DNA of 20,577 nt from a virus (lineage: Duplodnaviria; Heunggongvirae; Uroviricota; Caudoviricetes). The stretch lies in the IMG/VR virus record IMGVR_UViG_2695420478_000010. One strand, given 5' to 3'. A program made the translations under genes and the position numbers. The notes beneath the pieces are model-generated. The model saw nothing but the letters and a program-made list of their open reading frames with translations. It ran no database searches and had not been told where the DNA came from. Positions 645 to 14,838 of the stretch are shown piece after piece (position 1 is the first letter of the stretch; each line of letters opens with the position of its first letter).

Positions 645-950
645 TCAGTGAAGCGATCCGGCGTTATTCTTTTTCATCTCTTCCATCATTTTTTCAGTGA
701 GCATTACGCACTGAAAACCCATGTTTTTGATGTCTACGGGTTTCATGCCTTTGTCAGTGGATATCACAGGCAGAATATCCTGATACACATCGCGGTCAGG
801 GTAACTAAGCACACAAAGCGCCCATGATGCCACGGGTGAGGATCCTTCGTCTGTTTCAACCCACCAGCCTGGTGTAGCTGCGCTTATTTGCTGAATCGTG
901 ATCCGTCCGTTGTGCTTGTAAAGTTTTTCACCAAATTTTGGTTCGCTCAT
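645..950 (-). CDS. Hypothetical protein (101 aa)
   Basis: ORF with GGAGAG RBS; its ATG overlaps the stop of the upstream ORF (ATGA), indicating translational coupling. No recognisable motifs. Confidence 0.5.
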   Translation of the reverse strand: MSEPKFGEKLYKHNGRITIQQISAATPGWWVETDEGSSPVASWALCVLSYPDRDVYQDILPVISTDKGMKPVDIKNMGFQCVMLTEKMMEEMKKNNAGSLH

Positions 951-1198
951 GATTTCAACTCTCCGGTTTTAACGTTGATGGTTGTTACCTGTTCCGCTTC
1001 GGCAATCTCCCGTTCTGTCAACGTGGCAAAGTTTGCCGCTGCTGTGGTCATGAATGCGCTTATCAGGTCGGGATGTTCCTTCGCGTATCCTTCCCCTACG
1101 TGTCGGTCTATCGTTCTGATTGCCACCTTTAAGGCCAGCTCTGTTATATCTAACGCTTTATATTTCGGCTCTGTTCTGTCTCTGCGTGTTCTGGTCAT
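947..1198 (-). CDS. Hypothetical protein (about 83 aa from the ATG at 1198; the ORF track's longer start at 1231 lies in the AT-rich stretch)
   Basis: GAGGTGG RBS precedes the ATG at 1198; first gene downstream of the iteron cluster. Confidence 0.45.
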   Translation of the reverse strand: MTRTRRDRTEPKYKALDITELALKVAIRTIDRHVGEGYAKEHPDLISAFMTTAAANFATLTEREIAEAEQVTTINVKTGELKS

Positions 1199-1227
1199 TT
1201 GCCACCTCAATTTATATATATATAGAA

Positions 1228-1550
1228 ACATGTGCGGGTTATGCGGGTTATTGGGTTATCTTAGCGTGCTAACCATTTTTTACCCTTTTATATCAGCATG
1301 TTGCAAAACACCCTGTTTATTATTTGCTCACCACGTAACCCGCAAAACGCTCAAAATAACCCGCAAACGGGGTTTTTTCTGCGGGTTACGCATGACTGTC
1401 CGGTGTTACTTCAGTTATTCGCCTGCGGGTTATAATCGTGCTTTTGCGGGTTATAAATGCCCTTTTGCGGGTTACGTGCGGGTTATTGATTTCCTTTATA
1501 TTCATACACTTAATACACTTATACACAGGATAACCCGCATAACCCGCAAT
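1228..1550. repeat. Iteron cluster: about 12 copies of TGCGGGTTAY in both orientations; probable replication origin
   Basis: Copies at about 1233, 1243, 1380, 1424, 1445, 1466, 1478 (forward) and 1336, 1366, 1530, 1540 (reverse: TAACCCGCA), plus a degenerate copy near 1251; preceded by TATATATATATA at 1212-1225; immediately downstream of the primase gene. Confidence 0.6.
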
Positions 1551-1570
1551 TTTTTTCCTCACACAGGGGA

Positions 1571-3703
1571 TTAATCTTCATCATCAGGCTGGAACATCAG
1601 CACGTAAAAAACATGCTGCTTACCCCCAATCTTGCCCAGCGCCTTTTTTTTGTATCGGCGATCGCTTCCCTTCTCCAGCATTCCGGCAGCATCCAGGGCA
1701 CGCGCAAAATGCGCCGGATTAAATCCCTTCGCTATCTCACTCTCAAACACGTGCGGGAACGTGTAATAGCGCATCTCGTCATCTTCGTTGCGAATGCTCC
1801 CTTTTCTGTATCCGGCAAGCTCTTTAATCGGTAAATCACGCTCATCTGTATTGGGGTACGGAAGGTAGCGGCTAAACCCAAACGACGACAAAAACGCCTC
1901 AGCCTGTTCAACCATCTGTTTAAATTCCCTGTTACCCGTGCCGAACTCCTTCACCCAGGCATTAAAGTTATGCTGTATCGCGTCGCGGCATTCCTGCACG
2001 ACCCAGCCAGTTACATGACCGGAAAGCACAAGCGCGGCCTCCAGTATGGCGAAACGTTCACCCACGCGGTGGACCTGCTCGCCGTAACTCTCCGGTATCA
2101 GGTTGCGCCACCGTTCGCGGCATTCCCTTACCGTGTCCTTTGCCTCCTGCTGGTGGCCTGCCAGCCATTTAACCCACTCACGACCCGCCGCCCCGTGATT
2201 TGCTGTCCAGGCATCCTTTAACGCGTCAGCATGTTCCTTACCGTTGCTGTATTCGTGAAATTTCGTGGCTTTTTCCATCGGAACGTTAAGCAGTCGGACA
2301 AGCTGCCCCGCCTTAACTTTTATCCCCTCACTTTTGAGGAATGTCTCAACGTCCATTTCTCCGGTGCTGATTGCCACCGTTCGCCAGTGTTTGATCTCCC
2401 TGTTGCCGCCATCCTTCGCCCCCTGCAATTTCCCTGAACCGTTAAACAGCGTATAAGCAGACGTTGACACTTCCCGCGCATTTCCGGCCTGGCCTATCTC
2501 ATCCAGTGGTAAAAGCCCGTCATTATGGGCCTCGGCCTCATTGGCAATACCTAACGCCGTGCCGTACCAGGTCAGCCGCTGCGCGTCCGGCTCTCCCCAT
2601 AAACTTGATGCGATGTTCTGCGTGGTGGTCTTACCTGCCGATGACTGTTCGAAAAGATGCACCCCGAAGCCGTCAGCACCCACAAGGCCAATTAAAGGCG
2701 CTGCCAGTGACGTTGCCACACCCAGTATCATTGAGGCATTACCGCCAGCCAGCCGCGCCACGCTGTCGCGCCAGCCATCCGCCGTGCCCGCCACGGAATA
2801 ACCGTTAATCGCGGCGCTTTTTCCGGTAAACAGGATCGGTTTTTCAGATTCACCAATGATCGAACCGTCCGGCATGATGTACGCGCCAAAATGCCAGCCC
2901 GTTGTTGTGCTTAACTGCCATTCCTCATGGCTTCCGCTTAACTGCATCCAGTCCGCCAGGATTGCCCTGTATTTGCCGTTGGTTGTCACGTTCAGCCCGT
3001 GATCTTTAAGTAACCGCCAGCCGTCACGGTCGCCGATACCACCACACGGGATCGCCATTGTGATGACTTCATGGTTTGCGGTTTTTTTCCAGCGCATCAC
3101 GCGGTAATGCTCTTTACCGATCGTCCCCGTTCCCAGTAGTTCAAGCGGAGAACATAACCACGTCTCAGGCCGGATAATTTCGCCTGACTGCTTATCCACT
3201 TTGGGCGTTACCCAGAAAACACCATCGGCGCGACTTTCAACGCGTGGCTTTAATTCGTCATCGCTATGGCTTCCGGTATCTTTTTTCTTTACCGGAAACT
3301 CAATAACCAGACCATCAGAAAGATTCTGCCGCTCACGGGCCAGATATTCGCGCCAGTTCTCCACCTTCTGACCGTGCATACCCTCAGGATAAAAATTTGC
3401 ATCCTGTACACCAGCCGCCGCCAGCTTTTGACCAATCGCCTTGATCATTACTGGTGCAAGATGTCCGGCCCTGAATATGCGCACGGATTTTCTGCCTTCC
3501 GGCACAATTTGCAGCTTATCCAGTTCTGATAACTGCTGCTCCCCAAGCCACACAGGAGGCACATTATCGCCGGATGCGGGGCCGTCCTGCTCCTGCCACT
3601 GTTTTGCATGTGCCCACGCATCACTACCCGCGAAAATAATCACCTCTGTGTCTTTGTGTTTTATTCCGCGTGGCTGTTTTTTTACGTTCGGTGCCAGTTT
3701 CAT
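1571..3703 (-). CDS. P4-type primase/helicase (alpha-like replication protein, DUF927-type NTPase)
   Basis: 710-aa ORF with AGGGGT RBS; Walker A-like FEQSSAGKTTTQ and Walker B-like LLPLDEIG; start overlaps the upstream ORF stop (ATGA). Confidence 0.88.
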   Translation of the reverse strand: MKLAPNVKKQPRGIKHKDTEVIIFAGSDAWAHAKQWQEQDGPASGDNVPPVWLGEQQLSELDKLQIVPEGRKSVRIFRAGHLAPVMIKAIGQKLAAAGVQDANFYPEGMHGQKVENWREYLARERQNLSDGLVIEFPVKKKDTGSHSDDELKPRVESRADGVFWVTPKVDKQSGEIIRPETWLCSPLELLGTGTIGKEHYRVMRWKKTANHEVITMAIPCGGIGDRDGWRLLKDHGLNVTTNGKYRAILADWMQLSGSHEEWQLSTTTGWHFGAYIMPDGSIIGESEKPILFTGKSAAINGYSVAGTADGWRDSVARLAGGNASMILGVATSLAAPLIGLVGADGFGVHLFEQSSAGKTTTQNIASSLWGEPDAQRLTWYGTALGIANEAEAHNDGLLPLDEIGQAGNAREVSTSAYTLFNGSGKLQGAKDGGNREIKHWRTVAISTGEMDVETFLKSEGIKVKAGQLVRLLNVPMEKATKFHEYSNGKEHADALKDAWTANHGAAGREWVKWLAGHQQEAKDTVRECRERWRNLIPESYGEQVHRVGERFAILEAALVLSGHVTGWVVQECRDAIQHNFNAWVKEFGTGNREFKQMVEQAEAFLSSFGFSRYLPYPNTDERDLPIKELAGYRKGSIRNEDDEMRYYTFPHVFESEIAKGFNPAHFARALDAAGMLEKGSDRRYKKKALGKIGGKQHVFYVLMFQPDDED

Positions 3704-3999
3704 TTTTTACCCCTGAATACGTTAAGCATCTTTTTTATTTCCTGAATATTGGCGCGTGCTTTCTCCCTGCTGGTTGGTTTACTGCGGGGCGCTGCCTGTA
3801 CCAGAGAAAAATCACGCCGGAACTGATAAACAGGCATCACGCAATCATATTCGTAGCCTTCACGATGGTAGGTTACGCGCCGTTCCTCCACGCCCTTAAT
3901 CATTACCGTGCCGCCGTACTTATCGCGGTAAATATCCCCGCACATGAATTTAGTGCGAGTTTTGCCGCTGGCAGTTAAGCCAGAATATTTAAGTTTCAT
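3700..3999 (-). CDS. Hypothetical protein (99 aa), translationally coupled to the primase
   Basis: GGAGAA RBS; stop overlaps the primase ATG. No recognisable motifs. Confidence 0.55.
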   Translation of the reverse strand: MKLKYSGLTASGKTRTKFMCGDIYRDKYGGTVMIKGVEERRVTYHREGYEYDCVMPVYQFRRDFSLVQAAPRSKPTSREKARANIQEIKKMLNVFRGKK

Positions 4000-4004
4000 T
4001 ATTT

Positions 4005-4268
4005 TTATTCTCCGATAGCGTGACCTGATAAGCCGTTAATCTTCTCTGATATGCTCTCTATTTTGCTGGTTGAACTATCCAGTAATTCAGAAACGGCTAA
4101 TATTAATCTTGCGGTTGATTCATCGCGTTCATTATTCGCCAGCGACTGAAGCCACATGTTCATTACTTCGTTCGCTGCGTTGTTTAAAGATATTGCGCTG
4201 TTGGCAAGGCTTCTTAATTCACTGGTCGCCAGTTTGTTATTGTTCATAGCGTTTAAATCTCTCATCAA
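4005..4268 (-). CDS. Hypothetical protein (about 86-87 aa; start TTG 4268 or ATG 4265)
   Basis: ORF in the coupled operon; weak RBS, start uncertain. Confidence 0.45.
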   Translation of the reverse strand: MMRDLNAMNNNKLATSELRSLANSAISLNNAANEVMNMWLQSLANNERDESTARLILAVSELLDSSTSKIESISEKINGLSGHAIGE

Positions 4269-4428
4269 TTAACCACAGCGCAACACTTCCAGAAAGTTTT
4301 GCCAGAAGGCCAGCTAATGCGGATATATCACCATCATTTAATTTATCAGGGTATACCTCAAGAAGGCGGCAAATAATTTCTGTCTGGTGCGCACGTTCAG
4401 CGGCTTCGTGTAATGTAATTTCCTTCAT
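4237..4428 (-). CDS. Hypothetical protein (63 aa)
   Basis: Strong AAGAGGTG RBS; ATG overlaps the stop of the upstream ORF (TAATG). Confidence 0.5.
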   Translation of the reverse strand: MKEITLHEAAERAHQTEIICRLLEVYPDKLNDGDISALAGLLAKLSGSVALWLIDERFKRYEQ

Positions 4429-4613
4429 TAATGCACCTCTTTTAATTCATACACTGCTGAAATAATGACTTGTGATAAGCCATATTCTGATGATTCGCTT
4501 CTCACCGCAGCAATAGCCGTCTGAACATTAACAGCCTTCACATTCTGAGCGATACCAATTGTGTGGCCTAGTGGGTTAACAGCGCTGGCAAATACACGGA
4601 AGGTTTTAAGCAT
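4428..4613 (-). CDS. Hypothetical protein (about 61 aa from ATG at 4613), first gene of the primase operon
   Basis: GGGGGTG RBS 4 nt upstream of the ATG at 4613; the track's longer start at 4655 has no RBS. Confidence 0.45.
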   Translation of the reverse strand: MLKTFRVFASAVNPLGHTIGIAQNVKAVNVQTAIAAVRSESSEYGLSQVIISAVYELKEVH

Positions 4614-4937
4614 GGCACACCCCCTGACGAATACGGGCGGCAAATACAGCAACACAACCTGACGGGCAACGGCTACGCGCTTCGCGTTCCGTCCAGGCGG
4701 TTACGTGGATGATTTGAGATTCTCCGGCACTCAGTGCCAGAAAACGCCACACAAAGGCCGTTTGTGTGTGTACAAGGTGTGGTATATGATTTACAGCAAC
4801 CATAACGGCTCCTAGTTTACGTTGTTGGTTAGAAGCACTGCGAGTGGTAATGACACTTGCGGGGCTTTGCTTTTTTAAGTGCTCTTGTGTTAAGGTGACC
4901 ACCTAACAATAGAAAGGCTAATTCAATAGGTGACCAC

Positions 4938-5129
4938 TTGTCAACAATCAAACGCGATAAAAGCCCTAAAGGGGACGGGCAATCCCCACAATTCAGAATG
5001 CGAATTTCTCCAGAGCTAAAAGAGCAATTCGATAAAGAAGCACAGAGCGACGGCATAAGCCTAGCCAACTGGCTTAAAGAGTTGGGGCGTACTGAACTAA
5101 AGCGGCGCGGTATAGAACCCAAAGGATAA
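4938..5129 (+). CDS. Small ribbon-helix-helix-like protein, putative regulator (TTG start at 4938 or ATG at 4998)
   Basis: AGGTGA RBS 4 nt before the TTG; segment RMRISPELKEQFDKEAQSDGISLANWLKELGR fits an RHH (Arc/CopG-like) pattern; divergent from the primase operon. Confidence 0.4.
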   Translation: MSTIKRDKSPKGDGQSPQFRMRISPELKEQFDKEAQSDGISLANWLKELGRTELKRRGIEPKG

Positions 5130-5171
5130 AAACTATCAGCGCCGTGGTGTGAGGTATTACGGCGCATTGCT

Positions 5172-5360
5172 ATGCAGGACAACACAATGACCGATAAAGA
5201 ATTGACCAAAACATTATCACCGGCACGGAAAAGACGGCGCAGAAAGATAGAGCATGAATCAGAAAGATTCGCGCCATGTGCTTTTGCCCTTGAGCAATTC
5301 CTTAAAGAGTACAGGGAAAAGCGCTCATTGCAGGTATGGCAACGAACTGAACCAGACTGA
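5172..5360 (+). CDS. Possible small basic protein (62 aa), doubtful
   Basis: ORF following the RHH-like ORF; poor RBS; contains a KRRRRK basic patch. Confidence 0.25.
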   Translation: MQDNTMTDKELTKTLSPARKRRRRKIEHESERFAPCAFALEQFLKEYREKRSLQVWQRTEPD

Positions 5361-5424
5361 TAGCATTGCCCACCAGCCAACAACCTGGTATTCTGGATAT
5401 GCTCAAGTTTAGTGTTATGCCACT

Positions 5425-5453
5425 GGCGGCCCTCTGCGGTCGCCTTTGTTTTA
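5425..5453 (+). terminator. Candidate rho-independent terminator for the plus-strand small ORFs
   Basis: GGCGGCC / GGTCGCC stem (one G-U pair), 6-nt loop, then TTTGTTTTA. Confidence 0.35.
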
Positions 5454-5471
5454 TGTGTCATATGCCCCCCT

Positions 5472-5696
5472 TTACGCTGCCTTGCCTGAATTAATACGAT
5501 CCCGGCTTTTAACCCATTCCATAACCTCGGAAAGCAGCCAACCTACTGAACGACCACCCAGATTACGGCGTGACGGGAAATTCCCTTTTTTCTCCAGTTC
5601 GTAGCGTGTAGTGCGGCACACTCCTGTTAACTTACGGCATTCATCCTCACGGATTACGCGATCTGATAGTGATTGAAATTGTGTATTTTGATTCAT
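5472..5696 (-). CDS. alpA: AlpA-family phage transcriptional regulator / excisionase-like HTH protein
   Basis: 74-aa ORF; central region LTGVCRTTRYELEKKGNFP and C-terminal SVGWLLSEVMEWV match the AlpA/Vis (HTH_17) pattern. Confidence 0.7.
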   Translation of the reverse strand: MNQNTQFQSLSDRVIREDECRKLTGVCRTTRYELEKKGNFPSRRNLGGRSVGWLLSEVMEWVKSRDRINSGKAA

Positions 5697-5731
5697 AAAA
5701 AAACGTCCTCGAACGTTGCCGAACGAGGACG
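5697..5731 (-). terminator. Stem-loop plus T-run on the minus strand, directly abutting the alpA start codon
   Basis: CGTCCTCG (5704-5711) pairs with CGAGGACG (5724-5731), 12-nt loop, followed on the minus strand by TTTTTT and then the alpA ATG. Confidence 0.5.
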
Positions 5732-5787
5732 ATTCTAGGCGGTAGTAAAACGCCGTTTGTGTGATATCACACTACCAGCACGTGATA

Positions 5788-6561
5788 TCACTTTTTACGT
5801 TTTTGTTGAGATTCACGCCCCAAATACTTTTGCCATGTCTGCCAATGTGTTTTTGGAAATTCTATCCCTCTGGATGCAGCTATAGAATCAATTAAATCTG
5901 CTATTTTAGGTAATGATTCCGTGTCCAGGTCTACATCACCCATTTCTGGAATAAGTTTAATTAAAGAGTAAATAACCTCATTCCTTTTTGACGATGCTTT
6001 TGGGCTATCTTCTGTTATCTTCGGGAAGTCTCCCGTATTTTTTATATTATCTAAATCACTAGCCATCACACACAAATAGTTAACATCAAATTCATAACCA
6101 CCCTTACAAAAAACATACATGAGATTATCATCACCATACTTATTCGTAAGATGAGAACATTTTATATATTGTCTCATGCTAAATTCGACATCAGCAAAAA
6201 CATATGCCGGAGTATAATAAAACCCTGATAAGCTGCTAACATAATAACATTTGATAGAATTCCCTACAGGACCAATAATGGCACTATCTAAAAATTCAGT
6301 GTCACCAGTTAAACCAACTGTAAAATTACTTCCAAAAACAGCAGATTCATCATTGAAAGGATATTTTATTAATTCTTCCTCATTACAACCATTGATAAAA
6401 TGACATAATGAAAAATTGAATTTTTTAGCATCAATTTTTGGTATATATACAGAAATATTAAGAGCACCTATATATGCGTAATGATAAAGATCTTTTATTG
6501 CACAGCCTAACTTTTCTGCCGCTTCAGGTAACGGATAATAGAGTCTTTTAGGTAATTTCAT
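5788..6561 (-). CDS. Hypothetical protein (257 aa), AT-rich accessory gene translationally coupled to the integrase
   Basis: Long uninterrupted ORF in visibly AT-rich DNA; GAAGGTGG RBS inside the integrase 3' end; ATG overlaps the integrase TGA (ATGA). No motif I can recognise. Confidence 0.7.
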   Translation of the reverse strand: MKLPKRLYYPLPEAAEKLGCAIKDLYHYAYIGALNISVYIPKIDAKKFNFSLCHFINGCNEEELIKYPFNDESAVFGSNFTVGLTGDTEFLDSAIIGPVGNSIKCYYVSSLSGFYYTPAYVFADVEFSMRQYIKCSHLTNKYGDDNLMYVFCKGGYEFDVNYLCVMASDLDNIKNTGDFPKITEDSPKASSKRNEVIYSLIKLIPEMGDVDLDTESLPKIADLIDSIAASRGIEFPKTHWQTWQKYLGRESQQKRKK

Positions 6562-7778
6562 TTGGCCACCTTCAGCATAACAATATTTTCATGATTTCCA
6601 GCCAGCACATCGAGGCGCTCAACCCACAGATTCAGAGCGTCCCGCTTCGCCTGTAAATAGCGTGAATGGTTATAGGTTTTTTGCTGACCGGGCATCTGAT
6701 GCGCTGTGATGTGCTCCACGATATGCGGATCGACACCTAAATCGTTCAGCATCGTTGTAAACGTGTGGCGAAAGTCATGCAGTGACCAATGTTCCTGGTT
6801 AAGCCGCTTATGCGCATTTCGCCCATATTGCGCTACCGTGGTATCTTTTTTCAGTTCTCCGAGCAATAACCCTGTATGCCGGTTCTGATCCACCAGCTTC
6901 TGAATGAACGGCAAAATGCCATCGGGGATTGGCCTGAATATCGTTACCTTCGTTTTGCTGTGCTCTTTTGGCACTGTCCACAACATTTCTTTCAGATCCC
7001 ATTCTTTGATCTCTGAAAGTCTGACCTCTGCAGTTCTGCACCCGAACACAATCAGCAAGCGCATTAACGCGCTGTAGTAAGGCGCGAACACATCACCATC
7101 AATAGCGCGTAAAATTTCCTTTAATTCGCTGTTACTGTGCACCCTCTCGCGAATTTCTGCTCTCTTACCCACATCGCTGACGATCAAATCGTCCAGGGCA
7201 TTACTGAACGCGTAGCGTCTCCTGCGGCAGAACTTTAGCGCCTGTTTGCAGGTTTGCATGACGTGCCCCGCTGCTACTGGTGCTTTTTTTCGTACACGGT
7301 CAAAACATGCGATCCACTGCCTTGTGTCGCATTTATCAAGAGGAATTGCCCCTATATGGCAAATGATGTGCTTATCCATACGTTGCACCAGCTTTATGTA
7401 GTCTTTGCGGTTATCCTTCGCATATTCCTCCAGCCAGTAGTTAATCGCCTCCTTCACCGTAACGGGTTTTAGCGCTTCCTGTACTGTGGCGCACAACTCA
7501 TAACGGGGGTTTTTACCCTCAGCCAGCCATGCCCGGCACTGTGCGCGTTTTTCCCTTGCAGCTTTCAGCGACAATTCAGGGTAAGCCCCCAGCTTTAACC
7601 GCTCTGCGGCAACCTCACGGCCTCCCGTTCGGTACCGGAAATACCAGGTTAATTTTCCGCCTTTTGAGTGTTTAATCTCCAGCCCGCCCCCGTCGGAGTA
7701 AAAACGCTCTTTTTCTGCCTGGACAGCCGCCAATTTTTTTAATGTCGAATCGCTCAGTTTGTTTAGTGCTTTTCCCAC
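6558..7778 (-). CDS. int: Tyrosine site-specific integrase, P4-like family (GTG start)
   Basis: 406-aa ORF with AAGAGGA RBS; N-terminal arm-binding-type region (GGGLEIKHSKGGKLTWYFRYR); C-terminal catalytic region LHDFRHTF ... HSRY. Confidence 0.92.
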   Translation of the reverse strand: MGKALNKLSDSTLKKLAAVQAEKERFYSDGGGLEIKHSKGGKLTWYFRYRTGGREVAAERLKLGAYPELSLKAAREKRAQCRAWLAEGKNPRYELCATVQEALKPVTVKEAINYWLEEYAKDNRKDYIKLVQRMDKHIICHIGAIPLDKCDTRQWIACFDRVRKKAPVAAGHVMQTCKQALKFCRRRRYAFSNALDDLIVSDVGKRAEIRERVHSNSELKEILRAIDGDVFAPYYSALMRLLIVFGCRTAEVRLSEIKEWDLKEMLWTVPKEHSKTKVTIFRPIPDGILPFIQKLVDQNRHTGLLLGELKKDTTVAQYGRNAHKRLNQEHWSLHDFRHTFTTMLNDLGVDPHIVEHITAHQMPGQQKTYNHSRYLQAKRDALNLWVERLDVLAGNHENIVMLKVAK

Positions 7779-8107: not shown

Positions 8108-8380
8108 TTATTTGATATATGAATCCAGCACCTTCAGAACGACATCCAGATCTTCTTCACGTTTTAGCTCATCCCCCTGGTGAACGATGTGTTCCGTCAG
8201 ATGACCTTTAATCACTTCCCGCATCAGACCGTTTACCGCGCCACGGATAGCAGCAATCTGTTGTAAAACTGCAGCGCATTCGTGCGGCTCGTCGAGCATT
8301 TTCTTGAGCGCCACGACCTGGCCCTGAATCTTACTGGCACGCGCTTTCAGTTTCTGTTTATCACGGATTGTATGAGACAT
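8108..8380 (-). CDS. rcnR: RcnR, Ni/Co-responsive transcriptional repressor (CsoR/RcnR family)
   Basis: 90-aa ORF whose sequence I recognise as E. coli RcnR; divergent from rcnA. Confidence 0.92.
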
Positions 8381-8428
8381 GGCAACACCTGGTTAACAAG
8401 AATATGAAAAATCATAGCACTATTAATC

Positions 8429-8463
8429 TACTGGGGGGTAGTATCAGGTACTGGGGGGGAGTA
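8429..8463. promoter_or_regulatory. RcnR operator: two TACT-G(6-7)-AGTA sites in the rcnR-rcnA intergenic region
   Basis: TACTGGGGGGTAGTA (8429-8443) and TACTGGGGGGGAGTA (8449-8463), matching the published RcnR recognition pattern. Confidence 0.8.
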
Positions 8464-8500
8464 GAATCAGATTGCCGAATTAATACTAAGAATTATTATC

Positions 8501-9346
8501 ATGACCGAATTTACAACTCTTCTTCAGCAAGGAAACGCCTGGTTCTTCATCCCCAGCGCCATCTTACTTGGTGCGCTTCATGGCCTGGAACCAGGGCACT
8601 CAAAAACGATGATGGCGGCGTTTATCATCGCCATCAAAGGCACCATTAAACAAGCGGTGATGCTCGGACTGGCAGCAACTATTTCGCATACCGCAGTGGT
8701 CTGGTTAATTGCCTTTGGCGGGATGGTGATCAGCAAGCGCTTTACTGCTCAATCAGCAGAACCGTGGCTCCAGCTGATTTCCGCAGTGATCATTATTGGC
8801 ACCGCGTTCTGGATGTTCTGGCGTACCTGGCGCGGCGAACGCAACTGGCTGGAGAATATGCACGAGTATGATTATGAGCATCATCACCATCATCACGATC
8901 ACGAACATCATCAAGACCACGAACATCACCACGACCATGGACATCATCACCATCACGAACATGGCGAGTATCAGGATGCCCATGCACGAGCCCATGCCAA
9001 TGACATTAAACGACGCTTTGATGGTAGAGAGGTCACCAACTGGCAAATTTTGTTATTTGGCTTAACCGGTGGCCTTATCCCCTGCCTGGCAGCAATTACC
9101 GTGCTATTGATATGCATTCAGTTGAAAGCCCTGACACTGGGCGCAACACTGGTCGTCAGTTTCAGCATTGGCCTGGCGTTTACGCTTGTCACCGTAGGCG
9201 TTGGCGCAGCAATCAGCGTTCAGCAGGTCGCAAAACGCTGGAGCGGATTTAACACTCTCGCTAAACGCGCCCCCTATTTTTCCAGTCTGTTGATTGGCTT
9301 AGTCGGTGTGTATATGGGCGTACATGGCTTCATGGGCATAATGTGA
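8501..9346 (+). CDS. rcnA: RcnA nickel/cobalt efflux protein with histidine-rich loop
   Basis: 281-aa membrane protein; loop HEYDYEHHHHHHDHEHHQDHEHHHDHGHHHHHEH encoded at about 8870-8965. Confidence 0.93.
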   Translation: MTEFTTLLQQGNAWFFIPSAILLGALHGLEPGHSKTMMAAFIIAIKGTIKQAVMLGLAATISHTAVVWLIAFGGMVISKRFTAQSAEPWLQLISAVIIIGTAFWMFWRTWRGERNWLENMHEYDYEHHHHHHDHEHHQDHEHHHDHGHHHHHEHGEYQDAHARAHANDIKRRFDGREVTNWQILLFGLTGGLIPCLAAITVLLICIQLKALTLGATLVVSFSIGLAFTLVTVGVGAAISVQQVAKRWSGFNTLAKRAPYFSSLLIGLVGVYMGVHGFMGIM

Positions 9347-9567
9347 TAACTCAATCCTTTAGGCTTGCATGTTATCTTCAGCCCAGGATGATTCTTAAAT
9401 CAGCTATTTCCGCTGACTCTCTGCTCGCTAAGGATGCTTTTAGGGCATCCTTTCATTTACACTTTTTACGAAATCATGGGATCACTAACAAAATATCGCT
9501 TGTCAGTTATATTGTATGGCAGGAAAGATATGCGACTGATATTACAGATCCCCAAAGTGGAGAGTTT

Positions 9568-9906
9568 ATGACCATTAAAAATAAGATGTTACTGGGTGCG
9601 CTTTTGCTGGTTACCAGTGCCGCCTGGGCCGCACCAGCCACCGCGGGTTCGACCAATACCTCGGGAATTTCTAAGTATGAGTTAAGTAGTTTCATTGCTG
9701 ACTTTAAGCATTTCAAACCAGGGGACACCGTACCAGAAATGTACCGTACCGATGAGTACAACATTAAGCAGTGGCAGTTGCGTAACCTGCCCGCGCCTGA
9801 TGCCGGGACGCACTGGACCTATATGGGTGGCGCGTACGTGTTGATCAGCGACACCGACGGTAAAATCATTAAAGCCTACGACGGTGAGATTTTTTATCAT
9901 CGCTAA
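9568..9906 (+). CDS. rcnB: RcnB (YohN) periplasmic protein
   Basis: ATG at 9568 preceded by GGAGAG; signal-peptide-like N-terminus MTIKNKMLLGALLLVTSAAWA; the track ORF from 9343 is an upstream extension without RBS. Confidence 0.85.
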   Translation: MTIKNKMLLGALLLVTSAAWAAPATAGSTNTSGISKYELSSFIADFKHFKPGDTVPEMYRTDEYNIKQWQLRNLPAPDAGTHWTYMGGAYVLISDTDGKIIKAYDGEIFYHR

Positions 9907-9931
9907 AAAAAGCCCCCTCATCATGAGGGGG
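9904..9931 (-). terminator. Terminator hairpin between convergent rcnB and yehA; T-run is on the minus strand
   Basis: CCCCCTCA / TGAGGGGG stem (9913-9931) with 3-nt loop; minus strand continues CTTTTTTT, overlapping the rcnB stop codon. Confidence 0.6.
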
Positions 9932-9987
9932 AAATGCAGACACCTTGTTATTTTTTATTATTAGCCACTTGCTCGTCTTGCTTGTTA

Positions 9988-11022
9988 TTAGTCGTATTTC
10001 ACGTTGATTAATGCGGTTGCCTCCAGTGCGCCAGATTTAACTTTGTTTGTATCGTAGACGTAGTAACTGGCTGTTATCGGAATTGAAACCGTTGTATCTG
10101 TAAGTTTTGACTTTGCCGCAATTTCTTTTAAATTTGTGTATCCTTTACTGCTGTTAGTGATATTTAAAAGTGTGACTGGCGAACCATTACTTTCAAGAAT
10201 AAATCCTACGCCATTATCTTCCGCACCTTTCAGTATTGTGTTGCTGTTGGTTAACAAGTCAGAACTTGATAAATACACCTGCATTTTCCGTGATGTTTGA
10301 TTTTGTTGACCTAATAAACTTTTACAACGCAGAATAATATCCCCTTGTTTACTATTTATTGTTGCTTTGTTACCTGTGGCTGGTAATTGTGAAACGGGAA
10401 TGCTGTCTAAAGTAATTAATAAATCGTCCGGTTTGCAGGTTGTGGTTATCGGGTTGTATGACAATGTCAGATTAAAGGAATAGACACCTGCATTTTGTGC
10501 CAATGCATTTCTGTAGTTATTTACACATGCATCCCATGACTTGCCACCTAATAAACACAGTAGAAATTGTACTGCGGCACTCCCGCGTGTCGATGATGAA
10601 GCACTGGATAATGTCGCAACACCATTAATCATCACTGAACCGCCGCCCCCCGCAGAAACATTCACTTTTGCATTACTGGCCGCAGGTGTCACCGTAACTG
10701 AATAACCACTGGTGAAACTGGTCTGATTATTTGACAACGTGATGTTGTTTTTATTGGTCCATTCAAAATGTAAATTTAATTTTATGGTATCGTTATAAAG
10801 TCCAACAATAATATCCGACGGGCTCATAGGGGTGATAGTATTTGTACTCACGCATGACGAATCATTAAAAGTATGCTCATATGTCGCCATTTGTGTTTGA
10901 GTAAGTGCAAAATCCCCCTGAACAACCAAGTTGTGCTGAACAGATAACTCACTATAACATGCCGCATAGCTCACAGGCATAACCATCATCATTAATATAA
11001 ATTGCATTATGCGAATTTCCAT
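9988..11022 (-). CDS. yehA: YehA, putative fimbrial adhesin/minor subunit
   Basis: 344-aa secreted protein with signal peptide; last gene of the yehDCBA cluster. Confidence 0.85.
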   Translation of the reverse strand: MEIRIMQFILMMMVMPVSYAACYSELSVQHNLVVQGDFALTQTQMATYEHTFNDSSCVSTNTITPMSPSDIIVGLYNDTIKLNLHFEWTNKNNITLSNNQTSFTSGYSVTVTPAASNAKVNVSAGGGGSVMINGVATLSSASSSTRGSAAVQFLLCLLGGKSWDACVNNYRNALAQNAGVYSFNLTLSYNPITTTCKPDDLLITLDSIPVSQLPATGNKATINSKQGDIILRCKSLLGQQNQTSRKMQVYLSSSDLLTNSNTILKGAEDNGVGFILESNGSPVTLLNITNSSKGYTNLKEIAAKSKLTDTTVSIPITASYYVYDTNKVKSGALEATALINVKYD

Positions 11023-11037
11023 AGAACCACCTGACTA

Positions 11038-13518
11038 TTACTGGCAAATATAATTTCTACTTTCATCAATCTCTTTACCGAAGGTGATTGTGCATGAAAG
11101 TCCTTGTTGCTTATCAATTGCCACATTAACCGATGGCGGTACTTCATTGGTGCGAATAAATAACTGGCTTCCCTGGCCGACAACGCCAATATTATGACCA
11201 TGGATATCATTGACTTCATAACCAAACATTAATGGTTGACCATCCGCTCTTAACGCTTTTATAAACCAGGGCTTGCGCTGATCGGTATCAAAATTAACCA
11301 GTACAACCGCGCCGCGATAAGGTGCGGCAATTTTCCGGTTGCCACGTAATTCTGCTTCGCTATCGCTTTGCGACACATCCAGCATCAGGTGATTTTCCCG
11401 ATAAGGTGTCATTCCGTCGTATATCACCACTCCATTACGGTTTGTTGTGCGATATTTTTGCCCATTGACATAAGCATCTTTAATTCCTGGCGCATTCATC
11501 ACAGCAAACGTTTCGGAAAGACGGTTCGCCAGATTAACGCCACCCGACCAGGCGACAATGCCCCCTGAAACACTGGCTCCAGCCTGTCGATAAGTACTCG
11601 ACTGACTATAACTGCCATTCACTGTCGCAACCGGCGCGTTCCAGGTCAAATTCGCCCCAGCTGTCGTTTCATTTTCCTGATGCTGATAACTCAGGTTGAC
11701 CCCATAGTTAAACTGATCCCGGCTTCCAACGGTTCCTGATAATCCCGTATTATTTGAGGCAACCCCCTGATCATCAAACGTCGTTGAGTTAGACATATAT
11801 ATTTGCCGACGAAGCGTCGTAACGTCATCACCCCAATCAAAGGGAATCGATATAAAAATATTAAAACGTTTCTCTTCATGATGATTCTCGTCATACGCCT
11901 GGCTTGCCGCGAGGGTATAGCTTATCCGCCGCCAGTTATTGGAATAACTCAACTGATAATCCTTACTGCTGCCGCTACGCCCCCAGTAATCTCGCCATAA
12001 CGTACTTAAGGACACAGACCCCCAGCCTTCTGGCAATGACTGGCTCATATTGGCAGAAAAGCTATTTTTACGGCCAAAATCGTTCTGGTAATAATCGGCA
12101 ATGTCATAGATATCGTTTTTATCACGGCGATAATTATCTTTATTGTTTGCCCAAACGTGATCGTTAAATGTCCGGTAATCACGCGACAAATAACGCCAGG
12201 CCGCCAGACCAAAACGCGTCGACGTTTGGCTCACAAATTTGTTGTAGGCAATTTGATAACTTTGCCCGTCAAACACATCGCCGTTGTCTTGTTTACTATG
12301 CGACTTCGTGGCATCGACGGAAATGGCACCAATGCGGGTATTCCAGCCAGTCCCCAAAGTGAACGCGTAATAATTATTCGCGACCATCGAGCCACCATAC
12401 AGCGTCAATAAATTATTAAAACCATACTGATAACCCGCCTGGACAAAATCACTTTGTTTGCTCGCCCCTTCAATATGGCTACGACCCGCCGCAAAATCAT
12501 ATTTCGATACGCCGGGTTGCAGCATATTTGGCACCGCTGCATAAGGTACCAGATAGGTGGTAACCGAGCCGTCCGCCTCTTTCACGCTGACATCAAGATC
12601 TGCTCCACCACCGGCCAACTGCAAATCTGTAATCGCAAACGGGCCAGGAGGAACCTCTTTCTGATAAACGACAAAACCATTCTGTTCAATAGTTACCAGC
12701 GCGTTACTCTGAGCAATCCCCTGCACCCGTGGCGTAAAATTTTGTTTCGAGTTAGGCAACATCTGCATATCACGAAACAACCGCACACCGCTGAAGCGAA
12801 CAGAATCAAAAATATCGCTTGATGTATACATATCACCCACGCGAAGCGTGCCGAGAAGTTGGGCAAATCCACGTTCCAGATACAGGGTATTGCTTTTCCA
12901 CACCCCTGGATTGTTATTTGTTTTACTGAAACTGGCATCAGAATGCAGTTGCCACCCCAGTAAATTTAACCCGCTGTTAAAACGTACATATGTACTCTTG
13001 TTATTACCCGACGCTTTATAGTCGCTGTAATACTGACTCACATAATAAGAGGTATAAAACGCATTAATACCCCGCTCCCAGTTTTCCGGTGGAACATAGC
13101 CACTTTCCAGTTCTTCCACCCAAGCCTGCGGGACACTGAAATCGAGACGAAAAACCCCGATATCCCAGCTATAGCTCCCACCCTGAACAAGTTGCTCAAA
13201 TGTTAAACATTGCTTACCACTGGCGAAGTTATCGCTATTAATGCCTAACCGCTTGATAACTTCTCTTGATAAACATGTTTCTTGCGGGTTGTCTTTAACA
13301 ATGATCTCATATTTCCCGCGCCATTGCTTATTGACATAAATATCGATGTCATACTGCCCCGGCAAGGGTTGATTATCATCAAGACGAATATTTGCAACCT
13401 GCTGGTCTTTCATTCCACCTATCATAAAATGGGTATCAAAGGTTTCTTCAGCTGCATAAGCTTCAATGCCGAGCAATAACGCTACGATTGCTGATGCAAG
13501 TGGGGTCATTCTCAACAT
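11038..13518 (-). CDS. yehB: YehB, fimbrial outer-membrane usher
   Basis: About 826 aa with usher-like features and signal peptide MLRMTPLASAIVALLLGIEAYA; the ORF track adds 5 N-terminal residues. Confidence 0.9.
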   Translation of the reverse strand: MLRMTPLASAIVALLLGIEAYAAEETFDTHFMIGGMKDQQVANIRLDDNQPLPGQYDIDIYVNKQWRGKYEIIVKDNPQETCLSREVIKRLGINSDNFASGKQCLTFEQLVQGGSYSWDIGVFRLDFSVPQAWVEELESGYVPPENWERGINAFYTSYYVSQYYSDYKASGNNKSTYVRFNSGLNLLGWQLHSDASFSKTNNNPGVWKSNTLYLERGFAQLLGTLRVGDMYTSSDIFDSVRFSGVRLFRDMQMLPNSKQNFTPRVQGIAQSNALVTIEQNGFVVYQKEVPPGPFAITDLQLAGGGADLDVSVKEADGSVTTYLVPYAAVPNMLQPGVSKYDFAAGRSHIEGASKQSDFVQAGYQYGFNNLLTLYGGSMVANNYYAFTLGTGWNTRIGAISVDATKSHSKQDNGDVFDGQSYQIAYNKFVSQTSTRFGLAAWRYLSRDYRTFNDHVWANNKDNYRRDKNDIYDIADYYQNDFGRKNSFSANMSQSLPEGWGSVSLSTLWRDYWGRSGSSKDYQLSYSNNWRRISYTLAASQAYDENHHEEKRFNIFISIPFDWGDDVTTLRRQIYMSNSTTFDDQGVASNNTGLSGTVGSRDQFNYGVNLSYQHQENETTAGANLTWNAPVATVNGSYSQSSTYRQAGASVSGGIVAWSGGVNLANRLSETFAVMNAPGIKDAYVNGQKYRTTNRNGVVIYDGMTPYRENHLMLDVSQSDSEAELRGNRKIAAPYRGAVVLVNFDTDQRKPWFIKALRADGQPLMFGYEVNDIHGHNIGVVGQGSQLFIRTNEVPPSVNVAIDKQQGLSCTITFGKEIDESRNYICQ

Positions 13519-13533
13519 AGACAGCTCCTGCAA

Positions 13534-14208
13534 TTAAATTTTGTCACTAATATAGTTGCCGTGGTCATCGATAATGGTCAGATACCAGTTGTTTGCATTA
13601 TTACTTTTGACATTAACACTCTGACTTTCTAAGGGGGCAATCATAATAGTTTCATAATTGACTTTGACATTATTAGCTTTGACATCCGAAATCGTCACCC
13701 AATTAGCTGAGTCATTTTTTATCACCAATCCATTGCCACTGCGATTTATCAGTAACTTTTTAAAGGTCGCTTTATTCACCGGAGCAATACCCGCCGGCCG
13801 GTAAAACAATTTGATTCTGTTTTGCATCGCAAACTTCAGTGCATTCTTACCTTCTTGTTCTGGACTATTCGGTGGAATATCCAGAACATTAAGATAAAAA
13901 ATACTTTCCTTATTACTGGGTAATTTATTAGGCATGATTTTAATTTTTATTTGTTGCCCAGAATTGGCCGCTACTTTCACTACTGGTGGCGTTAACATGA
14001 AAGGAACCTGAATCTTTTCTGGCGGCAGAGACGTGTCGCCATCATCAATCCACGCCTGCATCAGCGAAGAGCGGTTTCCCTGATTCATCAGTTGTACCAT
14101 GACCTCTTTCTGCTCTGCCGGGTAAATGATACGGGTCCCGAAAATAACCATTCCGGCATGCACGGGGAATATCATAGAAGAGATGAGTAAAGATAATAAC
14201 CCTTTCAT
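13534..14208 (-). CDS. yehC: YehC, periplasmic fimbrial chaperone
   Basis: Start placed at the ATG at 14208 (AAGAGG RBS, signal peptide MKGLLSLLISSMIFPVHAG); the track's start at 14256 lies inside a palindrome and lacks an RBS. Confidence 0.85.
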   Translation of the reverse strand: MKGLLSLLISSMIFPVHAGMVIFGTRIIYPAEQKEVMVQLMNQGNRSSLMQAWIDDGDTSLPPEKIQVPFMLTPPVVKVAANSGQQIKIKIMPNKLPSNKESIFYLNVLDIPPNSPEQEGKNALKFAMQNRIKLFYRPAGIAPVNKATFKKLLINRSGNGLVIKNDSANWVTISDVKANNVKVNYETIMIAPLESQSVNVKSNNANNWYLTIIDDHGNYISDKI

Positions 14209-14232
14209 CTTAATGCCTCTTATATTTATGCT

Positions 14233-14256
14233 GGCCGCCATGAATATGGCGGCCAT
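14233..14256 (-). promoter_or_regulatory. Perfect 10-bp inverted repeat (TGGCCGCCAT gaat ATGGCGGCCA) between yehD and yehC
   Basis: Palindrome read directly; sits between the major-subunit gene and the chaperone gene, the position of mRNA-processing/attenuator hairpins in other chaperone-usher operons. Confidence 0.4.
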
Positions 14257-14295
14257 TTTAACTTACTGAAAAAACAAGATGATTATTTTAAATAT

Positions 14296-14838
14296 TTAAT
14301 CCTGGGCAACACGCATAACCAATGAAGAGTTAACAGTACCAGATGCAACACCACTGTCAGTCAACTTCAGATATTTTGCCTTAAACGGTATTGCATATTG
14401 TCCATCAGCAGTTTTATAACTTTCAATATTAAATGGTGCGGAAATATCCAGTACGTCACTGCTATCTCCCAAATAGAGATAGTATCCAACTGTGTCATTA
14501 CTACTGGATATTGCCTTATCATTACCAAGAATTTTCTCGTTGGTGATCAACGAAAGTTTTACGCCATCAATAGTCTTCGGACAAGTAATTTTCAGCATAC
14601 TGCTGGTTACACCAACCGCGCCATCATAAGTTGAATATTTCGCTTTACCATCAAATACAGTGGTGGGTACAGTCGGCATATTAATACTGACTGAATCACC
14701 GCCAGCGACAAATGTACATGGTGATTCAGCAATATTACCTTTAATGGTTAAAGTTCCGGTATCTACTTCAGCAGCGAAAATACCAGCACTCATAAATACA
14801 GAAGATAAGACAGCGACAGCAATAATTGAATGTTTCAT
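14296..14838 (-). CDS. yehD: YehD, major fimbrial subunit
   Basis: 180-aa ORF with AAGGAA RBS and signal peptide; first gene of the yehDCBA operon. Confidence 0.85.
   Translation of the reverse strand: MKHSIIAVAVLSSVFMSAGIFAAEVDTGTLTIKGNIAESPCTFVAGGDSVSINMPTVPTTVFDGKAKYSTYDGAVGVTSSMLKITCPKTIDGVKLSLITNEKILGNDKAISSSNDTVGYYLYLGDSSDVLDISAPFNIESYKTADGQYAIPFKAKYLKLTDSGVASGTVNSSLVMRVAQD

Follow-up and report, generated by a model that had tools for sequence, protein, structure and literature searches.

The window analysed here, the whole 20,577 nucleotide (nt) stretch of the IMG/VR virus record IMGVR_UViG_2695420478_000010, carries on its minus strand a chain of small genes that runs directly into a replicase gene. 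Four of its open reading frames (ORFs), here called ORF1 to ORF4, occupy positions 3700 to 4613, from the ATG of the 61 amino acid (aa) ORF at 4613 to the stop of the 99-aa ORF at 3700 (Table 1; coordinates were read directly from the sequence). An earlier note on this DNA had described them as tightly coupled ORFs of about 61, 63, 87 and 99 aa, of unknown function, feeding into a primase. The four ORFs do run into the replicase, but the chain begins one gene earlier, with an Icd-like gene. ORF1 starts 8 nt ahead of the Icd-like stop (ATGCTTAA), the ORF1 stop and the ORF2 ATG have one base in common (TAATG), the ORF3 ATG lies inside the end of ORF2 with an overlap of 11 nt (ATGAACAATAA), ORF4 starts after a 5-nt gap from the ORF3 stop, and the ORF4 stop overlaps the replicase ATG by 4 nt (ATGA). 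Shine-Dalgarno-like purine runs precede the Icd-like gene, ORF1, ORF2, ORF4 and the replicase, and a weak one precedes ORF3. Three of the four sizes first given, 61, 63 and 99 aa, held. The 87-aa reading of ORF3, from a TTG at 4268, was replaced by one of 80 aa because the ATG at 4247 is present in all alleles, even in L035, where the position of a further upstream ATG (4265, an 86-aa reading) does not encode Met. Started at 4247, ORF3 agrees in the length of its N-terminus with the 30% identical analogue of other elements, and the RefSeq and Sakai annotations also give it 80 aa.

Table 1. Genes and other features of the window (position 1 is its first letter)
Feature	Positions	Strand	Length	Remarks
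Icd-like gene	4606..4803	-	65 aa	NCBIfam NF033153 (E=5.8e-18); heads the coupled chain, outside 3700-4613
ORF1	4428..4613	-	61 aa	ATG start; AGGGGG 7-8 nt 5' of the ATG
ORF2	4237..4428	-	63 aa	acidic, pI 5.2; AGAGGTG 5' of the start
ORF3	4005..4247	-	80 aa	from the conserved ATG; acidic, pI 4.8
ORF4 (rgdR orthologue)	3700..3999	-	99 aa	DUF4222; pI 10.05; CGD allele; GGAGA upstream
Replicase ("primase")	1571..3703	-	710 aa	DUF927 type; ATG at 3703
PrimN region of the replicase	3300..3703	-		residues 1-140
Probable replication origin	1226..1555	both orientations		at least 10 iteron 10-mers, TGCGGGTTAT / ATAACCCGCA; repeat families D1-D3, inverted pairs I1-I25
alpA	5472..5696	-		PF05930 (3.4e-16); upstream of the operon
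int	6558..7778	-
ORF between int and alpA	5788..6561	-	257 aa	overlaps the int stop
Divergent ORF	4938..5129	+	63 aa	in the alpA-to-icd spacer
Long antisense ORF	4829..5461	-
Direct repeat AGGTGACCAC	4893..4909, 4928..4944			overlaps TTGACA
Terminator-like hairpin	4748..4768	-		inside the Icd-like coding sequence
ORF downstream of the origin	645..950	-	101 aa
Flanking chromosome	8108..14838			E. coli rcnR-rcnA-rcnB and yeh fimbrial cluster

Comparison with related loci shows the four ORFs to be genuine conserved genes whose arrangement apparently couples their expression to that of the replicase, as the earlier note had argued from the TAATG and ATGA signals. The loci compared were 20 around replicase relatives in other genera and about 50 IMG/VR contigs with ORF1, ORF2 or ORF3. 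With the most divergent full-length alleles as reference, the dN/dS ratio (Nei-Gojobori) was 0.12-0.24 for ORF1, 0.33-0.40 for ORF2, 0.25 for ORF3, a value that holds at high divergence, and 0.22-0.30 for ORF4. The geometry of the junctions, counted over 46 IMG/VR contigs and 7 other loci, was kept in about 50 independent loci, with the 8-nt overlap of the Icd-like gene and ORF1 in 47 of 49, the 1-nt overlap of ORF1 and ORF2 in 46 of 50 and the 4-nt overlap of ORF4 and the replicase in 50 of 53. The dominant architecture among the collected loci is AlpA ... Icd-like-ORF1-ORF2-ORF3-ORF4-replicase. Homologues of 30-60% identity have kept their reading frames in, among others, Klebsiella, Salmonella, Serratia, Yersinia, Cedecea and Morganella. 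The remote-homology searches that had been proposed gave PHROG families matching each of the four ORFs from end to end (phrog_3672, 9e-46, for ORF1; phrog_1478, 4e-34, for ORF2; phrog_5796, 2e-53, for ORF3; phrog_285, 3e-30, for ORF4; thus E values from 3e-30 to 2e-53), a second PHROG match for ORF3 (phrog_2196, 7e-11) and DUF4222 for ORF4. The weak ribosome-binding site and ambiguous start of ORF3, and the size of the ORFs, all below 100 aa, would be compatible with some of them being chance open frames; this explanation is effectively refuted by dN/dS ratios well below 1 in all four cases, by the intact homologues and full-length PHROG matches, and by the confident fold prediction obtained for ORF1.

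Sequence comparison places the element in the EcCIEDL933 family of phage-inducible chromosomal islands, those of the capsid-forming kind (cf-PICIs), and not among P4-type elements as first proposed. Positions 947-5378 of the window are 99.4% identical to Sp7 of O157:H7 Sakai (OI-51/CP-933C of EDL933), in which the annotated genes follow the order integrase, helix-turn-helix (HTH) regulator, Icd-like, three hypotheticals, DUF4222, DUF927 protein, SSB, PerC, major capsid, protease, portal, head closure, connector, HNH, TerS and TerL. The early operon of EcCIEDL933 (ECs1577-ECs1582) and the chain of the window have the same genes, order and overlaps. The Icd-like gene corresponds to ECs_1577 (100% identical, tblastn), and ORF1, ORF2 and ORF3 to ECs1578, ECs1579 and ECs1580; ORF1 is 100% identical, and the differences amount to 3 aa in ORF2, 2 aa in ORF3, 4 aa in ORF4 and 1 aa in the replicase. 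Unlike EcCIEDL933, the window has a different int/alpA module with an intervening gene, and its site is thiM-rcnR instead of roxA/phoQ. The int, alpA and replicase genes all lie on the minus strand with the iterons 3' of the replicase, which is the PICI layout of int, alpA and pri/rep in one direction and the origin (ori) past pri. The window ends within the PerC gene, and a capsid module would lie past its left end; in E. coli 10671 the element found at this site (thiM-rcnR), which is 99.6% identical, has the complete capsid and terminase module, and Sp7/EDL933 carries the module as well. EcCIEDL933 is the prototype cf-PICI, and its induction and transfer depend on a helper phage and on alpA (bioRxiv 2022.09.08.507074). 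The helper induces AlpA, which activates PICI genes, and growth suffers when PICI replication is uncontrolled (PMC6092414).

The comparison with P4 had led to the suggestion that the small ORFs hold the place of derepression or anti-helper factors. The P4 left operon (epsilon, orf151, alpha) does have small ORFs directly 5' of, and co-transcribed with, a primase-helicase gene, and the window resembles it in its small ORFs 5' of the replicase and in the AlpA/Vis-type regulator and P4-type integrase nearby. However, the four ORFs have no sequence or family relationship to those of P4, and the replicase core is DUF927. The domains of P4 alpha (Prim_Zn_Ribbon/Toprim, D5_N, Pox_D5) were not found in the window replicase, where only DUF927 and a weak HTH_56 were detected, so that it is DUF927/Cch/SaPI-Rep-like and not P4 alpha-like. 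At E<=0.1, Pfam searches gave no match of any kind for ORF1-3, epsilon/Ash included, and only DUF4222 for ORF4. The genes sid, delta and psu are absent from the window and from its relatives, the closest of which have HK97-type capsid and terminase genes of their own in the corresponding arm. The analogy is therefore one of position. The idea that the small proteins are epsilon-like anti-repressors or anti-helper proteins acting on the helper phage is quite unlikely in our judgement, even though their position is analogous to that of epsilon and orf151 upstream of alpha, the acidic nature of ORF2 and ORF3 and the predicted fold of ORF1 are typical of protein inhibitors encoded by phages (Gp2, p56, Dmd and AcrIE2 are examples) and an epsilon homologue is present in some cf-PICIs. 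Gram-negative PICIs are induced by the helper via AlpA, and not the reverse (PMC6092414), which makes helper derepression less likely, and the known interference by cf-PICIs operates via their own capsid and packaging genes (bioRxiv 2022.09.08.507074). ORF1-3 match no Pfam, NCBIfam or PADLOC model, a PADLOC scan for defence and anti-defence systems gave no match for any of the four ORFs, and the ORFs are nearly absent from true phages: in bona fide phage genomes there was no DNA match, and tblastn gave only three weak partial matches of ORF4. The former statement that the ORFs hold no recognisable motif fails for ORF4. Of the proposed action on helper or host, the latter is plausible for at least some of them, given the effect of RgdR on host transcription and the geometry of the ECOR61 locus, both described below.

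The replicase matched PF06048 (1.4e-48), phrog_1139 (8e-191) and, weakly, HTH_56, and its relatives of solved structure are the 'Pathogenicity island protein' of SaPI (PDB 8tch, 2.5e-12) and the SCCmec Cch helicase (5dgk, 0.0025). Its N-terminal region, which we call PrimN (in the related locus L026, positions 5913-6329), belongs to no Pfam family and is a mobile module linked to the small-ORF block, being joined here to a DUF927 core and in most E. coli PICIs to a D5_N/DUF5906/Pox_D5 core. PrimN-type replicases from other genera that are 62-67% identical to that of the window (L005, L007, L019 and L020) are accompanied by none of the four ORFs. The iteron array beside the replicase gene is very probably the replication origin of the satellite; an origin directly downstream of pri is the arrangement described for Gram-negative PICIs (PMC10111431).

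Sequence and gene position identify ORF4 as the orthologue of RgdR (ECs1581). It matches PF13973 (DUF4222) over residues 18-68 with a score of 80.8 bits (gathering cut-off 27; E=5e-23), 95 of its 99 residues (96%) are identical to those of ECs1581, its length and basicity are ECs1581-like (99 aa, charge +12.6, pI 10.05), and both genes occupy the same slot directly 5' of the replicase gene, which they overlap. RgdR has 99 aa and a pI of 10.09, and its deletion reduces type III secretion (Flockhart 2012, PMC3378721). It activates the LEE1 promoter without need of Ler and GrlA, represses motility when expressed in trans and binds DNA non-specifically in electrophoretic mobility shift assays, and it and C1493, its orthologue in CFT073, can stand in for each other (PMC3378721). 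Fillol-Salom et al. note RgdR in every E. coli PICI that they analysed. The four changes of ORF4 relative to ECs1581 are P6S, D10A, R20C and Q27K, and residues 20-22 are consequently CGD and not RGD. In the ED1a variant (D10A, R20C, Q27K, K35N, H45R, R61D) both activation and DNA binding are lost, and C20R restores activity, whereas the ECs1581-R20C single mutant is still active and K35N has attenuated activity (PMC3378721). The activity of ECs1581-R20C indicates that the RGD motif is not strictly required. The window protein has D10A, R20C and Q27K in common with the inactive ED1a variant and retains K35, H45 and R61; given the active R20C and the attenuated K35N mutants, the CGD allele may or may not be active.

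The structure model of ORF4, built from a shallow alignment (the profile-based homologue search gave only close E. coli alleles among the best 120 listed), predicts a Tudor/KOW-like barrel followed by a basic C-terminal helix and matches DUF1653 and other Tudor/SH3-like barrels; relatives of solved structure, sought by sequence, were not found. This predicted fold class is generic, and the precedent of the RNA polymerase-binding Tudor domain of UvrD/PcrA is a lead, not a result. DUF4222 proteins occur in a long form of 95-107 aa with the basic C-terminal helix and in a short form of 56-72 aa that consists of the barrel only. The stop of the long form overlaps the ATG of a PrimN-replicase (ATGA) in the window, in L026-type loci, in L004 and in L006, as it does, judged by gene ends, in L008 and the frameshifted L068; the short form lies 200-3000 nt upstream of replicases without PrimN. 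A possible exception is L015, with a 99-aa long form upstream of a replicase in which PrimN was not detected and whose start is uncertain. This distribution suggests a functional tie between the RgdR tail and PrimN. RgdR is probably a transcription or nucleoid co-factor, which may also serve the replicase.

These observations bear on the possibility that the small proteins, above all ORF4, are replication accessory factors that aid Pri/Rep in recognising, melting or loading at the iteron origin and have no role towards host or helper. The translational coupling, in 50 of 53 loci, of ORF4 and the replicase, the retention of DUF4222 as the most frequent of the four beside related replicases in other genera, and the co-occurrence of the long-form helix with PrimN would all be accounted for, as would the presence of PrimN with the small-ORF block on two unrelated helicase cores, the DNA binding of RgdR and the position of an origin just downstream. 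Nevertheless, we regard this explanation as rather unlikely, since the PrimN replicases of L005, L007, L019 and L020 show the ORFs to be dispensable for this replicase type, RgdR alone has effects in trans on host promoters, and ORF1-3, being neutral or acidic, are unlikely DNA binders.

The alleles of the chain reassort. Identity to the window differs gene by gene, with 14 combinations of allele classes in 51 loci. At locus L066 it is 98% for the Icd-like gene, 72% for ORF1, 95% for ORF2, 94% for ORF3 and 78% for ORF4, and at locus L069 the corresponding values are 54, 58, 87, 71 and 96%. Other genera retain only subsets of the ORFs, DUF4222 most often. The reassortment and the subsets argue that the four proteins are separately exchangeable and do not form one complex; from these comparisons they look like exchangeable accessories held in a fixed expression frame. 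Exchange gene by gene and a gene content that varies across genera would also be expected of independent cargo ('morons') retained for host fitness, that is, of separate regulators of the lysogenic-conversion type whose place in the operon is a historical accident, and the effects of RgdR and of the OI-51 deletion on type III secretion, adherence and sheep colonisation (PMC3378721) could be read in the same way. We consider this very unlikely, because gene order and overlaps are fixed down to 30% identity, which implies selection on co-expression with the early operon, and because an operon that is silent without a helper fits lysogenic-conversion genes poorly.

The remaining three ORFs were characterised by family and, in the case of ORF1, by fold. 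The AlphaFold2 (AF2) model of ORF1, from an alignment of 42 sequences, has a predicted beta-beta-alpha-beta fold with a pLDDT of 94.7. Its fold matches in BFVD were uncharacterised small phage proteins only, and the ORF1 profile gave nothing meaningful against solved structures. Because ORF1 and the Icd-like protein both look beta-beta-alpha-beta, ORF1 was considered as a diverged Icd-like paralogue and rejected at the sequence level (hhalign probability 0.6%). A DUF1471 assignment, taken from the UniRef name of one Morganella homologue, was also discarded, there being no Pfam match. For the ORF2 family an exhaustive search gave 55 cluster representatives, most of them 60-90 aa long. Multi-stretch matches of ORF2 to large ankyrin-repeat proteins were judged repeat-inflated or compositional, and none of 34 family members matched the Ank Pfam models even at E<=10. 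The slot of ORF3 is occupied in most E. coli PICIs by a 73-aa analogue that is 30-35% identical. In some alleles a poly-G tract lies at the junction of ORF1 and ORF2, where a change of frame gives a 125-aa ORF1-ORF2 fusion (L070, 576-953; P0173) and other frames give an extended ORF1 of 72-78 aa (P0170 and P0171; L075, 110-328). This frame change may reflect either an error in sequencing the homopolymer or genuine variation of a phase-like kind.

A host-directed role for at least some of the small ORFs is plausible, and the locus that bears most directly on it is that of E. coli strain ECOR61, a 'prophage-encoded superinfection exclusion / PCD' locus. In this strain, growth ceases when orf24, an accessory gene of a phage, is expressed (Silas et al., bioRxiv 10.1101/2023.04.06.535777), and Tn5 suppressors fell in three 'prophage' genes, QOYT01000045.1:8940-9132, 9131-9317 and the Icd-like 9309-9675 (bioRxiv 10.1101/2023.04.06.535777). 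The ECOR61 locus resembles the window in having six linked genes with the Icd-like gene first and a DNA primase gene last. With lengths of 186 and 192 nt and overlaps of 8 nt and 1 nt, the two small genes in which Tn5 had inserted have exactly the geometry of ORF1 and ORF2. Unlike the window, ECOR61 presumably has a replicase of the D5_N/DUF5906 type and the 73-aa analogue in the ORF3 slot. Loci with a 121-aa Icd-like gene, as in ECOR61, have the ECOR61 gene lengths, overlaps and RefSeq product names, and their ORF1 and ORF2 are respectively 92-97% and 80% identical to those of the window. In this 121-aa lineage (L063, 4643-5008; L050; L122, 9044-9409) the length is due to a tandem duplication of the Icd-like unit, which corresponds to the 'long N-terminal extension' described in ECOR61. 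An island with the 121-aa Icd-like gene splits a major capsid protein gene in E. coli GN06489 and has phage head and tail genes as its neighbours, an arrangement that fits the helper-embedded type of PICI.

A further system for comparison is the immI operon of P1 (c4 RNA - icd - ant), in which an Icd-family ORF comes first and has to be translated for the downstream genes, which overlap it, to be expressed. The window is similar in having an Icd-family ORF at the head of the chain, its first gene matching NF033153. It differs in that its downstream genes are unrelated to ant and in that an Rfam search upstream of the Icd-like gene for a C4/CI-type antisense RNA found none.

We favour the reading, to which we give a probability of roughly 0.55, that the chain is the early operon of a cf-PICI, ordered icd-like, orf1, orf2, orf3, rgdR, pri/rep and ori, whose small proteins arrest and reprogram the host. 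A helper phage would switch on alpA, and AlpA would then drive a polycistron of icd-like, orf1, orf2, orf3, rgdR and pri/rep. The stop/start overlaps would pass ribosomes from gene to gene, keeping the small proteins in fixed proportion to the replicase. The Icd-like division inhibitor, together with ORF1 and ORF2 as putative small protein-binding modulators, would contribute to host growth arrest on a phage cue, as suggested by the ECOR61 suppressors. RgdR would bind DNA, and perhaps RNA polymerase or the replicase, and transcription would be reprogrammed; ORF3, which is small and acidic, would be one more member of this class of accessories. Finally, Pri/Rep would fire the adjacent origin.

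Several points weigh against this reading. The authors of the ECOR61 study name the Icd-like protein as the effector (bioRxiv 10.1101/2023.04.06.535777), and the Tn5 insertions in the ORF1- and ORF2-like genes may act only via polar effects on the genes that follow. Lengths, overlaps and annotation are the basis for the presumed homology between ORF1 and ORF2 and the genes of ECOR61. The Icd-like gene of ECOR61 has 366 nt (121 aa) and is a tandem Icd-like duplication, compared to 65 aa in the window, where the frame upstream of the ATG and its ribosome-binding site is closed, save for a GTG option of 98 aa, and the long form is thus not present. Icd-like alleles of 48-97% identity occur in free combination with those of ORF1, which argues against a tightly co-evolving complex of Icd and ORF1. 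The RgdR allele of the window has C20, as does the inactive ED1a variant. Moreover, a sigma-70 promoter scan of positions 1200-6000 returned zero sites, so that transcription as one operon is deduced from gene packing.

A more specific proposal goes beyond the host arrest and reprogramming that we favour. In it, the Icd-like protein, ORF1 and ORF2, possibly with ORF3, would form a phage-sensing arrest device similar to abortive infection and lodged in the replication operon of PICIs, with ORF1 and ORF2 as the sensor or adaptor that links a phage protein to the Icd-like division inhibitor. RgdR, separately, would dock on RNA polymerase like the C-terminal domain of UvrD/PcrA or like CarD, and its C-terminal helix might hand it to the PrimN domain. 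We put this forward tentatively, as a possibility that is more doubtful than probable. If true, docking on RNA polymerase would explain the effects of RgdR on LEE, flagella and curli.

The small ORFs are ordinary and largely known satellite genes, annotated since the Sakai genome, of an element family that has been described. This member of the family has a different integrase arm and the CGD allele of RgdR, and the analysis adds predicted folds for ORF1 (beta-beta-alpha-beta) and RgdR (Tudor/KOW-like barrel and helix). Two literatures, one on virulence regulation by RgdR in enterohaemorrhagic E. coli (EHEC) and another on phage-triggered death involving an Icd-like protein and two small genes, would concern neighbours in a single PICI operon, the link to ECOR61 being the one drawn above from gene geometry. 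For EHEC work there is the caution that RgdR alleles, such as the CGD variant, differ between islands. The block is very common: among 5426 complete E. coli genomes, about 1470 contain DNA resembling it. Taken together, the two literatures bear on how PICIs take over the host.

Other features were noted around the operon. The spacer between alpA and the Icd-like gene measures 670 nt. The divergent 63-aa ORF in it gave a sub-threshold HicB/RHH-like match, and relatives annotate a YlcI/YnfO family protein at this position. The long antisense ORF is annotated as an Icd-like pseudogene in one relative, and the direct repeat that overlaps the TTGACA is a candidate operator or AlpA site. The hairpin on the coding strand of the Icd-like gene has a stem of 8 bp followed by GCGTTTTCTG; 12 terminator-like sites were observed in the region against 5.7 expected, and this one may be due to chance. 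The 257-aa ORF between int and alpA lies in the PICI hotspot for accessory genes. It matched no Pfam, NCBIfam or PHROG family, its sole match being a faint one to PADLOC mad1 at the N-terminus, and it could be a cargo or defence gene. The 101-aa ORF downstream of the origin belongs to no family; the segment 647-946 has no counterpart in Sp7, but the ORF is present in E. coli 10671. Between int and rcnR that strain has extra genes, encoding an outer membrane protein and a protein with an HTH-like domain, which are absent from the window, where the flanking E. coli chromosome listed in Table 1 follows.

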